The notes below the pieces were generated by a model. It was not told where the DNA came from, made no database searches, and saw only the letters and a program-made list of their open reading frames with translations. Of a DNA stretch of 64,000 nucleotides, positions 3,377 through 32,973 are shown in pieces (the first letter of the stretch is position 1; the number at the start of each line of letters is the position of its first letter). A program made the translations under genes and the position numbers. This DNA comes from Escherichia coli (lineage in GTDB: Bacteria; Pseudomonadota; Gammaproteobacteria; Enterobacterales; Enterobacteriaceae): the NCBI RefSeq assembly GCF_003018255.1, contig NZ_CP027440.1; one strand, written 5' to 3'.

Positions 3377-5058
3377 GCCTCGTCCCTCCATGGTAGTCGT
3401 AACGTTATTCGGGTGTAACAATCAGGCTCACAGGCGACGCTTATCCCATAGTCATCGCCAAACCGTTCACGTAAACGCTTATCCACCAGATTCATCCCCA
3501 GCCCACTGGCATTGGTTACCGGTTGATACAAACCGGCATTGTCTTCGATCTCCAGCATCAAATGTTGCCCCTCACGTCGGGCGCTGATTGCCACTCGCCC
3601 TGTATCCAGCAGTTGTGATGTCCCATGTTTAATGGCGTTTTCCACTATCGGTTGCAGGGTAAACGCGGGCAATTGCTGCTGGGATAATTCTTGCGGAATA
3701 GCAATGTTGACCTGCAACCGCGACTGGAAGCGCGCCTTTTCAATTTGCAGATAAGCGTTCACATGTTCAATTTCGTCTGCGAGAGTAACAAACTCCGAAG
3801 GCCGCTTTAAGTTTTTGCGGAAAAAAGTGGAAAGATACTGGACCAGCTGGCTGGCCTGTTCGCTGTCGCGGCGGATCACCGCTTTAATGGTGTTAAGCGC
3901 ATTAAACAAAAAATGGGGGTTCACCTGGGCGTGAAGCAGTTTGATCTCTGACTGGGTGAGCATCGCTTTTTGCCGCTCATATTGCCCGGCGAGGATCTGC
4001 GCCGAAAGCAGTTGCGCAATCCCCTCGCCCAGCGTGCGGTTGATTGAACTGAATAAACGGTTTTTGGCTTCATACAATTTGATGGTGCCCATCACCCGCT
4101 GATTTTCGCCACGCAACGGAATGACCAGCGTCGACCCCAGTTTGCATTGCGGATGCAAAGAGCAACGATAAGGTACTTCGTTGCCATCAGCGTAGACCAC
4201 TTCACCGGTTTCAATCGCTTTTAAGGTGTAAGTCGAAGAAATCGGTTTGCCGGGTAAATGGTGGTCGTCACCAATTCCGGTAAAGGCCAGCAATTTCTCT
4301 CGATCGGTAATCGCGACTGCACCAATATCCAGCTCCTGATACAGCACCTGTGCCACTTTCATGCTGTTCACTTCGTTAAACCCCTGGCGCAAAATGCCTT
4401 CCGTCGAGGCAGCCACTTTTAGCGCAGTGGCAGAAAAAGCCGAAGTGTATTTTTCAAACATCGCGCGTTTATCGAGCAATATACGCATAAACAGCGCCGC
4501 GCCGACGGTATTGGTAACCATCATTGGCGCAGCAATATTACTCACCAGACGCACCGCATCTTCATAAGGTCGGGCGATCGCCAGGATGATCAACATTTGC
4601 ACCATTTCAGCGACGAACGTGACGGCACCGGCGGTAATGGGGTTAAAGACTTTATCAGTGCGCCCGCGACGGATCAGGATGCTGTGTACCAGGCCGCCGA
4701 GCAACCCTTCAACGATGGTCGAGATCATGCAACTTAGCGCGGTCATGCCCCCCATCGAATATCGATGTAACCCGCCGGTCAGACCAACCAGCCCACCGAC
4801 GACCGGACCGCCGAGTAAGCCGCCCATTACCGCGCCTATCGCACGGGTATTGGCAATAGAATCGTCAATGTGCAACCCAAACCAGGTGCCCATGATGCAG
4901 AAGATGGAAAAAACGATGTAGCAGAGAAATTTATGCGGCAGACGAACCGTGACCTGCATTAACGGTATGAATAATGGCGTTTTACTCATTAACCACGCAA
5001 TGACTAAAAAAACGCACATCTGCTGAAGCAGCAGCAACACCAGATTAAAATCGTACAT
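3373..5058 (-). CDS. btsS: LytS-type sensor histidine kinase BtsS (YehU)
   Basis: 561-aa ORF, N-terminal multi-TM 5TMR-LYT region, GAF and His-kinase domains; start ATG 5058 (MYDFNLV), track GTG 5073 rejected. Confidence 0.92.
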
Positions 5059-15264: not shown

Positions 15265-15437
15265 GATGAGCATTCAGATAGTGGTTCACGCGCACGGGTT
15301 GCGCACCGCCGGAGTAAGGATTTACTGAGGCTAGCGACGCCATCATAACGAGCAAAAAGTGCGATCGTCAAAGAAGAATCGTGAGGAAATGCTGCATTGC
15401 TGACATTTACGCCAGCAATGCAGCGCAAAAGAACTTT

Positions 15438-28191: not shown

Positions 28192-30187
<1,996 letters not shown>

Positions 30188-30238
30188 TATTTTCTCTTTT
30201 CTGTTAATTATTGAGAATAATTATTACTTCACTCAATA

Positions 30239-30276
30239 AGCTGCGGATATAACATTCTGAACCGCAGCTATTTGTG
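30239..30276 (+). terminator. hairpin terminator candidate after yeiS
   Basis: 8-bp stem AGCTGCGG/CCGCAGCT followed by T-rich tract. Confidence 0.45.
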
Positions 30277-30335
30277 AATCCTTTCACAGTTTAAATTTCC
30301 CCACGCGCATAGCCTTAATATCAGCACGCAATATT

Positions 30336-30462
30336 TATACTCTAAATAATTCGAGTTGCAGGAAGGCGACAAGTGAGTGAGTCCCCAGGAGCTTACATAA
30401 GTAAGTGACTGGGGTGAGCGAACGCAGACGCAGCACATGCAACTTGAAGTATGACGAGTATA
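30336..30462. repeat. ERIC (IRU) element
   Basis: contains AAGTAAGTGACTGGGGTGAGCG (the ERIC2 primer sequence) and GTGAGTCCCCAGGAGCTTACAT (1 mismatch to the ERIC1R complement); flanking imperfect palindrome TATACTC...GAGTATA. Confidence 0.75.
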
Positions 30463-30505
30463 TTTAGCGTTCGCCTTAATTACTCATAGCATTAAGGAAG
30501 ATCAC

Positions 30506-31744
30506 ATGCCGCAACAAAATTATCTGGATGAACTCACTCCGGCTTTTACACCGTTACTGGCGATTAAAGAAGCCTCTCGCTGTTTATTATGCCATGACGC
30601 CCCCTGTAGTCAGGCTTGCCCGGCACAGACCGATCCGGGGAAATTTATTCGCTCAATCTACTTTCGTAATTTTAAAGGCGCTGCCGAGACAATTCGTGAA
30701 AATAATGCCCTCGGTGCCGTTTGTGCCAGAGTGTGCCCGACGGAGAAATTATGCCAAAGCGGTTGTACCCGTGCCGGTGTTGATACTCCCATTGATATCG
30801 GTCGCTTACAGCGTTTTGTTACTGATTTTGAACAACAAACTGGGATGGAAATTTATCAGCCCGGTACTAAAACGCTCGGCAAAGTCGCCATTATTGGCGC
30901 GGGTCCTGCCGGATTGCAGGCCAGTGTGACACTGACAAACCAGGGTTATGACGTCACGATCTATGAGAAAGAAGCACAACCCGGTGGCTGGTTGCGTAAC
31001 GGCATTCCGCAATTCCGGTTACCGCAATCAGTACTGGATGCAGAAATCGCCCGTATTGAAAAAATGGGCGTGACCATTAAATGCAATAACGAAATCGGTA
31101 ACACACTCACCCTGGAGCAGCTGAAAGCGGAAAACCGCGCGGTACTGGTCACTGTGGGGTTATCGAGCGGTTCGGGGCTACCACTGTTTGAGCATAGCGA
31201 TGTTGAGATTGCCGTCGACTTCTTGCAACGTGCACGACAGGCGCAAGGCGATATCAGCATTCCACAAAGCGCATTAATTATCGGCGGCGGTGATGTCGCG
31301 ATGGACGTAGCCAGCACGCTGAAAGTTCTCGGCTGTCAGGCAGTAACTTGCGTAGCGCGTGAAGAGTTAGATGAGTTTCCGGCAAGCGAAAAAGAGTTTG
31401 CCAGCGCCCGGGAGCTGGGCGTTTCGATCATCGATGGATTCACGCCAGTAGCTGTGGAAGGCAATAAAGTCACGTTTAAGCATGTACGGTTACCGGGCGA
31501 ACTGACGATGGCGGCAGATAAAATTATTCTCGCCGTCGGTCAGCATGCCAGACTGGATGCCTTTGCGGAGTTAGAGCCGCAGCGTAACACCATCAAAACA
31601 CAAAATTACCAGACCCGCGACCCGCAAGTCTTTGCTGCTGGCGATATTGTTGAGGGTGACAAAACCGTGGTTTATGCCGTGAAAACCGGGAAAGAAGCCG
31701 CTGAGGCGATTCATCACTATTTAGAGGGAGCTTGCTCATGTTAA
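30506..31744 (+). CDS. preT: NAD-dependent dihydropyrimidine dehydrogenase subunit PreT
   Basis: 412-aa ORF, N-terminal Cys cluster and FAD/NAD(P) fold ([11 protein letters not shown]). Confidence 0.92.
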
Positions 31745-32973
31745 CGAAAGATCTTTCGATTACCTTTTGTGGTGTGAAGTTTCCCAACCCGTTCTGCCTC
31801 TCTTCTTCGCCTGTAGGCAACTGCTATGAGATGTGTGCCAAAGCCTACGACACAGGCTGGGGTGGCGTGGTGTTTAAAACGATCGGTTTTTTTATCGCCA
31901 ACGAAGTCTCGCCGCGTTTTGATCATCTGGTGAAAGAAGATACCGGTTTTATCGGCTTCAAAAATATGGAGCAGATTGCTGAACATCCGTTGGAAGATAA
32001 TCTGGCCGCACTGCGTCGGCTGAAAGAAGATTACCCGGACAAAGTATTGATCGCTTCAATCATGGGCGAAAATGAGCAGCAATGGGAAGAGCTGGCGCGT
32101 CTGGTGCAAGAAGCTGGCGCGGATATGATCGAGTGTAACTTCTCCTGTCCGCAAATGACTTCTCATGCGATGGGTAGCGATGTCGGGCAAAGCCCGGAGC
32201 TGGTAGAAAAATATTGTCGGGCAGTAAAACGTGGTTCCACGCTGCCAATGCTGGCGAAGATGACGCCGAATATCGGTGATATGTGCGAAGTGGCGCTGGC
32301 GGCGAAGCGCGGCGGCGCAGATGGCATTGCGGCGATTAACACCGTTAAATCCATCACCAATATCGATCTTAATCAGAAAATCGGTATGCCGATCGTTAAC
32401 GGTAAATCGAGTATTTCCGGATATTCCGGTAAAGCGGTAAAACCGATCGCCCTGCGCTTCATTCAGCAAATGCGTACCCATCCAGAACTGCGCGATTTCC
32501 CGATCAGCGGTATCGGCGGCATTGAAACCTGGGAAGATGCGGCGGAGTTTTTATTGCTCGGTGCAGCGACGTTGCAGGTGACCACCGGCATTATGCAGTA
32601 CGGGTATCGGATAGTGGAAGATATGGCAAGCGGGTTGTCGCATTATCTCGCCGATCAAGGGTTTGATTCGTTGCAGGAGATGGTAGGTCTGGCGAATAAC
32701 AATATTGTCCCGGCGGAAGATTTAGACCGCAGTTATATTGTCTATCCCCATATCAATCTCGATAAATGTGTTGGCTGTGGACGCTGTTATATTTCCTGTT
32801 ACGACGGCGGTCACCAGGCGATGGAATGGAGCGAGAAAACCCGTACACCGCATTGTAATACCGAGAAATGTGTTGGTTGCCTGCTTTGTGGTCACGTCTG
32901 CCCGGTGGGTTGTATTGATCTCGGAGAAGTGAAGTTTAAGAAGGGAGAGAAAGAACACCCGGTAACGTTGTAA
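31738..32973 (+). CDS. preA: NAD-dependent dihydropyrimidine dehydrogenase subunit PreA
   Basis: 411-aa ORF from ATG 31738 (MLTKDL); DHOD-like TIM barrel plus C-terminal 2x[4Fe-4S] ferredoxin motifs ([23 protein letters not shown]); 7-bp overlap with preT. Confidence 0.92.

Follow-up and report, generated by a model that had tools for sequence, protein, structure and literature searches.

The ERIC family of small repeats, known also as IRU and RU-1, is said to have been described by Sharples and Lloyd in 1990, Hulton et al. in 1991 and Wilson and Sharp in 2006, the last of whom reportedly listed 14 non-K-12 ERICs. ERICs are MITEs with terminal inverted repeats and a duplicated TA target (PMC2229807 Table 1; PMC3184786), and no transposase or autonomous partner that mobilises them is known (PMC2229807). 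The Correia/NEMIS elements of Neisseria and the RUP elements of Streptococcus pneumoniae are also small MITEs with terminal inverted repeats and TA duplication, which are co-transcribed and yield RNase-cleavable hairpin RNA (PMC2229807); the likeness to ERIC is one of small size, terminal inverted repeats and TA target duplication, whereas the sequences are unrelated to ERIC, and the promoter and IHF motifs of Correia elements have no counterpart that we found in the element described here. For Yersinia ERICs, orientation-dependent effects on the levels of co-transcribed mRNA have been described (De Gregorio et al. 2005, as related in PMC2229807, PMC3184786 and PMC10969869), and in those accounts the characterised copies that destabilise mRNA border on upstream stop codons and carry an RNase E site in the 3′ terminal inverted repeat. 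Internal insertions within ERICs have also been reported, according to the citations given in PMC3696847 (Sharp 1997; Cromie, Collins and Leach 1997).

The stretch analysed here, 64,000 nucleotides of one strand of an Escherichia coli contig (the window), contains such an element between yeiS and preT. Publications already cover the element and the family to which it belongs, the signature of its mobility, its variability between strains and the long forms, and positions 30336-30462 are an ordinary ERIC example, that is, a known kind of element. What is new here is the locus-level count of the polymorphism, according to which approximately 41% of complete E. coli genomes carry the element and K-12 is empty, together with the finding that the functional work on preTA and the anticancer drug 5-fluorouracil has all been performed in strains without it.

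Identity of the element

An earlier note on this DNA, made from the sequence alone, had proposed a full-length ERIC/IRU repeat with the classical ERIC2 primer sequence and a near-perfect ERIC1R complement, located in the yeiS-preT intergenic region, and this description was upheld in all of its parts. The features concerned are the following.

29948-30187, + strand: yeiS (DUF2542 protein), the upstream gene, with its stop codon 148 nt before the element
30336-30462, + strand: full-length ERIC/IRU/RU-1 element, 127 bp including the TA at each end
30336-30360, + strand: left terminal inverted repeat, 25 nt, 80% complementary to 30438-30462, AU-rich on the + strand
30377-30420, + strand: conserved central core, consisting of the ERIC1R complement, ERIC2 and the apical hairpin 30383-30396/30401-30414
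30438-30462, + strand: right terminal inverted repeat, pairing with 30336-30360
30506-31744, + strand: preT (NAD-dependent dihydropyrimidine dehydrogenase subunit), the downstream gene, with its ATG 43 nt after the element
about 31732-32973, + strand: preA, which follows preT

The gene order is sanA, yeiS, preT, preA, all on the + strand, and the gene names and the placement of the element between yeiS and preT are those given in RefSeq for a genome with 100% identity over 953 bp. The element has the sequence TATACTCTAAATAATTCGAGTTGCAGGAAGGCGACAAGTGAGTGAGTCCCCAGGAGCTTACATAAGTAAGTGACTGGGGTGAGCGAACGCAGACGCAGCACATGCAACTTGAAGTATGACGAGTATA, and the limits first proposed for it coincide with both ends of the 25-nt terminal inverted repeat. 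Its conventional (Hulton) orientation corresponds to the + strand and thereby to the sense of yeiS and preT. Alignment to the published E. coli consensus (113/127 positions, 89%) and to the Salmonella copy SeRU-1 (117/127, 92%) was gapless over 127/127 positions in both cases, the references being the consensus of Wilson and Sharp, reproduced in Delihas 2007, and SeRU-1, both from PMC2759123 Table 1a. The consensus thus aligned end to end rather than placing the repeat outside the ERIC family, and the covariation of the family, described below, agrees with this assignment. The ERIC2 primer (AAGTAAGTGACTGGGGTGAGCG) is matched without mismatch at 30399-30420 (+) and the ERIC1R primer with a single mismatch at 30377-30398 (-); allowing up to three mismatches, each of these sites is single in the 64-kb window, while none was expected from 100 shuffles. 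A chance palindrome or a non-ERIC repeat was considered as a candidate and is ruled out by these unique primer sites together with the full-length consensus alignment.

All sequence-level features that define an ERIC are present at 30336-30462. The likeness to the ERIC/IRU/RU-1 family comprises the 127-bp length, the consensus, both primer sites, the imperfect palindrome and the TA-ended terminal inverted repeats, as well as the intergenic position, the dispersed multi-copy distribution and the strain-variable presence, and no material difference was found, the copy being 11% off the E. coli consensus and nearer to the Salmonella copy. The general characteristics of MITEs are also seen, namely terminal inverted repeats, a target-site duplication, the absence of a transposase gene from the element, whose sole ORF is the fortuitous minus-strand frame described below, and a filled/empty polymorphism. 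A sensitive blastn search of the 64-kb window found no second ERIC copy, even a diverged one. In RefSeq records the element is unannotated ('none' under match), so that its polymorphism is easily overlooked.

At the gathering threshold Rfam gave no match to the element, and the sole match in a permissive scan was to RF02818 V_AS5 (Vibrio antisense RNA AS5) at 30335-30458 (+), which spans model positions 1-129 of 129 and scores 46.7 bits against a gathering score of 96 (E = 3.3e-9). A match that is full-length in sequence and structure and yet below the gathering score denotes distant ERIC homology, not membership, and suggests that the Rfam V_AS5 family was built on a Vibrio relative of ERIC.

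Insertion at a TA and strain polymorphism

Comparison of alleles with and without the element (filled and empty, respectively) defined the insertion site as follows.

30336-30337, no strand assigned: left copy of the duplicated TA target, from the filled/empty allele alignment
30461-30462, no strand assigned: right copy of the duplicated TA target, with a net gain of 125 bp

The empty alleles of O157:H7, ECA64 and the K-12-type strain EC600 read AATATT-TA-TTTAGCG, whereas the filled allele reads AATATT-TA[TACTC...GAGTA]TA-TTTAGCG. A single TA in the empty alleles as against a TA on both sides of the 125-bp gain identifies a TA target-site duplication.

The variability between strains that had been anticipated for this insertion was confirmed when the locus was followed across complete genomes. 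A 953-bp query extending from yeiS to early preT located the region in 5412 of 5426 complete E. coli genomes, in length classes of 953, 828 and 1031 bp, and the left junction, scored with a 90-nt query at a coverage of at least 80%, is present in 2201 of the 5426 (approximately 41%). Filled alleles occur, for example, in O111:H8 and O121 strains, and empty ones in the K-12 derivatives EC600 and MC4100, in BL21(DE3), in O157:H7 and in Ecol_732. The corresponding query for the empty junction is unusable as a count, as its matches are joined over the inserted DNA and the K-12-type haplotype has diverged too far to be recognised.

Outside the element the window is identical to the empty O157:H7 allele throughout the intergenic region (0/191 differences). 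Among eight filled alleles the element differs at 0 to 2 positions and the immediate flanks represent one haplotype, and this uniformity of element and immediate flanks fits one insertion. The wider flanks of the filled alleles are a mosaic, some of them with a K-12-like preT 5′ end, and the flanks of the empty ECA64 allele resemble some filled alleles more closely than filled alleles resemble one another. The question of origin was judged from the flanks of 16 alleles, for which the recombinant wider flanks make a tree not meaningful, and one insertion followed by recombination appears to be the simplest reading of these sequences. Occasional precise excision at the yeiS-preT site is possible, and recombination and such excision would be indistinguishable here because the empty ECA64 allele falls inside the range of variation of the filled ones.

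A separate observation concerns the K-12-type intergenic region (30188-30505), which differs from the type shared by the window and O157 at 28 of 190 aligned positions (14.7%); in the same comparison (EC600, O157:H7) the differences amount to 0-0.8% in yeiS and 2-4% at the preT 5′ end. Approximately 1467 of the 5426 genomes are without an O157-type junction match and probably carry the K-12 type. As judged from the alignments, the K-12 type and the O157 type look like a switch of intergenic haplotype before preT that is independent of ERIC.

Long alleles and copies at other loci

In strain EC21Z-151 the yeiS-preT site is occupied by the same ERIC, here enlarged by 78 nt that follow GGGGTGAGCGA (extracted piece 689-893), and this insert comprises three small hairpins. 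The 78-nt segment occurs in 646 of the 5426 genomes, in 232 of these at an identity of at least 99%, and the same internal site has been used in an independent ERIC located downstream of yehK in APEC O18 (piece about 326-516). This 78-nt-longer allele at yeiS-preT, found in some E. coli strains, corresponds to the long ERIC forms of Sharp 1997 and Cromie 1997 and is a known ERIC variant, whereas the window itself holds the short 127-bp form. The long allele shows that within E. coli the yeiS-preT locus has undergone more than one change of form.

A pattern scan of a species-level genome collection with the core GGAGCTTACNNAAGTAAGTGAC returned at least 120 stretches from at least 15 genera, with matches in Yersinia, Citrobacter, Enterobacter, Escherichia albertii, Pectobacterium, Serratia, Rahnella, Leclercia, Siccibacter and others. 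Among the matches listed, 118 copies from other species could be extracted, of which 88 measure 124-131 bp with a mode of 127, and further size classes of about 190-205 bp and 268-275 bp were seen among the same matches. E. coli genomes have a median of 6 ERIC places each by megablast with the element, and other E. coli copies lie within operons, namely between pgk and fbaA and between cusC and cusF. The copy of Escherichia albertii NBRC 107761 (piece 4296-4422) matches the window element at 125 of 127 positions and occupies an unrelated locus, which suggests that a source copy of this ERIC subtype has been active, or has been shared, within Escherichia in recent times. That the E. albertii copy is an ancient orthologous insertion was rejected, as its flanks are unrelated.

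The E. coli collection also contains 22 ERIC places on plasmids, and a cusC-cusF copy was found on the 42.7-kb plasmid pF138-4 (NZ_OY754386.1; extracted piece 601-644). The plasmid ERICs were presumably carried along with chromosomal segments.

Predicted hairpin and covariation

The expectation that the element would form a stable stem-loop when transcribed is matched by folding predictions. RNA of the + strand, which is the sense of the genes, is predicted to form a single long hairpin with an MFE of -52.7 kcal/mol (z = -7.5), as against -38.9 kcal/mol (z = -4.4) predicted for the - strand, and G-U pairs that occur family-wide strengthen the hairpin on the mRNA-sense (+) strand here. The hairpin is conserved. 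When the MFE structure of the window element was superimposed on an alignment of 58 distinct copies from many Enterobacterales, so that the structure derives from one member of the alignment, 87.9% of cells formed standard pairs as compared to 32-38% with the partners slid. Compensatory changes on both sides were observed at 30 of the 41 hairpin pairs among the 58 copies, and 0 of 500 shuffles reached the observed values. The apical stem is fixed by the search pattern, and most of the compensatory signal is carried by the outer helices, which are independent of that pattern.

It was also noticed that in many copies from other species the outermost positions (columns 47-48 with 173-174 of the 58-copy family alignment) are not TA…TA. 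These termini still co-vary as complements, as in AATAC…GTATT, TTTAC…GTAAA and CATAC…GTATG, and the terminal dinucleotides there consequently act as part of an inverted repeat and not as a duplicated TA target.

Transcription context and expected effect on preTA

Apart from the element, the yeiS-preT region contains the following features relevant to transcription and translation.

30153, + strand: window equivalent of the K-12 yeiT/preT TSS (MG1655 2231827), 353 nt before the ATG and upstream of the element
30234-30274, + strand: stem-loop after yeiS (CAATAAGCTGCGG / CCGCAGCTATTTG) followed by a weak T tract, an inverted-repeat pair present in all alleles
30474-30500, + strand: native preT leader hairpin CCUUAAU/AUUAAGG (N10 loop), overlapping the Shine-Dalgarno sequence AAGGAAG (30494-30500)

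In MG1655 the ATG is preceded at a distance of 228 nt, within the end of yeiS, by the only TSS assigned to yeiT/preT, which is represented by 2 reads, while a stronger TSS, supported by 13 reads, is found 27 nt before yeiS (Kim et al. 2012, PMC3415461 Table S1). The former was placed on the window by means of a 51-nt upstream string. Both start sites are upstream of the insertion point, MG1655 being an empty strain in which preTA is poorly expressed where measured, and no TSS is mapped within the yeiS-preT spacer in K-12 (PMC3415461 Table S1). Scans of the + strand found no sigma-70-like promoter in the spacer of the filled or the empty allele, and called no intrinsic terminator at 29900-30600 when a GC-rich stem of at least 5 pairs, a loop of 3-8 nt and a T-run were demanded; for the filled and empty alleles alike, no promoter or terminator on that strand was found to be carried by the element or to be made or lost at its junctions. 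The stem-loop after yeiS may act as a leaky terminator, to judge from its predicted structure, although the terminator scan did not call it. Given the position of the K-12 TSS upstream of the insertion point and possible read-through from sanA-yeiS, the element is most likely transcribed in the preTA leader.

The account that we favour for these observations (ERIC family membership, a TA-flanked 125-bp gain, a presence/absence polymorphism and a conserved hairpin) is that an ERIC inserted once at a TA, spread by descent and recombination, and is now likely a transcribed leader hairpin of small effect; we assign this a probability of roughly 0.85. According to this account, the spacer between yeiS and preT would have received a single insertion, 43 nt ahead of the preT start codon, at a TA dinucleotide that was duplicated in the process. 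The insertion would have arisen on a non-K-12 intergenic haplotype, and its subsequent spread across E. coli backgrounds, via descent and recombination, would have brought it to approximately 41% of complete genomes. From the 2-read TSS of an empty strain we infer that the element is probably transcribed within the preTA leader in its best-folding orientation, which would lengthen the leader of filled strains from 228 to 353 nt. There it would fold as a self-contained hairpin of about -53 kcal/mol and leave the native structure of the Shine-Dalgarno region unaltered; when the leader was folded with the element and without it, the ERIC was predicted as a closed module with the neighbouring structures unchanged. 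The native preT leader hairpin is likewise predicted identically with and without ERIC and is kept in filled, empty and K-12-type alleles, and by its predicted overlap with the Shine-Dalgarno sequence it may be a translational control feature of preT. The outcome would probably be small, the element being a passenger structure with perhaps a mild change in leader stability or processing. On these predictions a neutral or mildly modulating passenger hairpin is most likely, and a dedicated regulatory device is unlikely.

A stronger role would follow if the element were a functionally important cis-regulatory RNA, in which the leader hairpin substantially stabilises or destabilises preTA mRNA through RNase E, RNase III or a barrier to decay, and filled and empty strains would then show a marked difference in preTA expression. 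The great stability of the predicted hairpin, its support by covariation and the preference of the G-U pairs for the mRNA-sense strand agree with such a role, as do the effects on mRNA levels reported for Yersinia ERICs, with which the window copy shares family, TA duplication and predicted co-transcription as an RNA hairpin. The Yersinia effect, as far as it is described in the reviews cited above, nevertheless belongs to elements that sit beside an upstream stop codon and whose 3′ terminal inverted repeat contains the RNase E site, whereas the window copy is separated from the yeiS stop by 148 nt and from the preT start by 43 nt, with its AU-rich terminal inverted repeat at the 5′ side; judged from those reviews and the position of that repeat, it has the other orientation. 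As the predicted structure around the preT ribosome-binding site is also unaltered, we consider a substantial regulatory role unlikely, while an effect on mRNA stability of the Yersinia kind at preTA is, by analogy, possible.

Still less probable is that the insertion acts on initiation rather than on the fate of the RNA, by splitting a preT promoter or activator site or moving it by 125 bp. The insertion lies 43 nt from the ATG, where a core promoter or TSS is commonly found, its junction makes a TATATT hexamer (30459-30464), and the K-12 TSS evidence of 2 reads is at the detection threshold; a promoter could accordingly be located at or downstream of the insertion point. Yet the scan that found no promoter-like site across the empty site also found none created in the filled allele, K-12 has no mapped TSS in the spacer, and an allele present in 41% of genomes is unlikely to abolish the expression of a conserved operon. 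That the hairpin serves as a terminator or insulator which uncouples preTA from sanA-yeiS read-through is very improbable: a long stable hairpin is indeed followed by UUUAGCGUU, but the scan did not score it as an intrinsic terminator, a T-run reaching 5 in 8 being absent, and other ERICs inside operons (pgk-fbaA, cusCFBA) are co-transcribed across. The remaining alternative involves one additional feature.

30268-30438, - strand: 56-aa ORF through the ERIC, holding the known RU-1 translation (…VRSPQSLTYVSSWG…NSNYLEY; compare PMC2759123 Table 1a)

A product of the element's own, whether a small RNA like V_AS5, for which the match is full-length (E = 3e-9) but far under the gathering score and no promoter was found by the scan, or a peptide from this ORF, which passes through the element but is the known fortuitous RU-1 frame (PMC2759123) extended into an unrelated flank, is hardly credible. 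The 56-aa minus-strand ORF is probably not a gene, and gene finders could mis-call it.

Possible relevance to 5-fluorouracil inactivation

The passenger hairpin favoured above would matter little in itself, and its small practical interest comes from the preTA context. preTA is both required and sufficient for 5-fluorouracil inactivation by E. coli (bioRxiv 10.1101/820084), and in mice the level of preTA expression decides the protection against capecitabine toxicity, wild type being intermediate and an over-expressing strain giving rescue (PMC11185696). This functional work was carried out entirely in MG1655 and BW25113 (10.1101/820084; PMC11185696), which are without the element and have, in addition, a 15%-divergent region upstream of preT; the preTA papers make no mention of the preTA promoter, the intergenic region or ERIC. 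The dependence of the phenotype on preTA expression level provides a modest reason to compare filled and empty strains. It is doubtful that preTA expression is set by the ERIC insertion as a widespread natural cis-regulatory polymorphism, such that filled strains (approximately 41%) and K-12-type strains differ in their rate of 5-fluorouracil inactivation in the gut. In that case the divergent K-12-type intergenic region may act alongside ERIC on preTA expression. If the insertion does alter expression, a difference between strains would escape predictions that use the abundance of the preTA genes.

Elsewhere in the window, the Rfam scan identified the Peptidase-S11 RNA motif (RF03039) at 15269-15349 (-), which with 72.8 bits against a gathering score of 34.8 is the only gathering-level Rfam match in the 64 kb.
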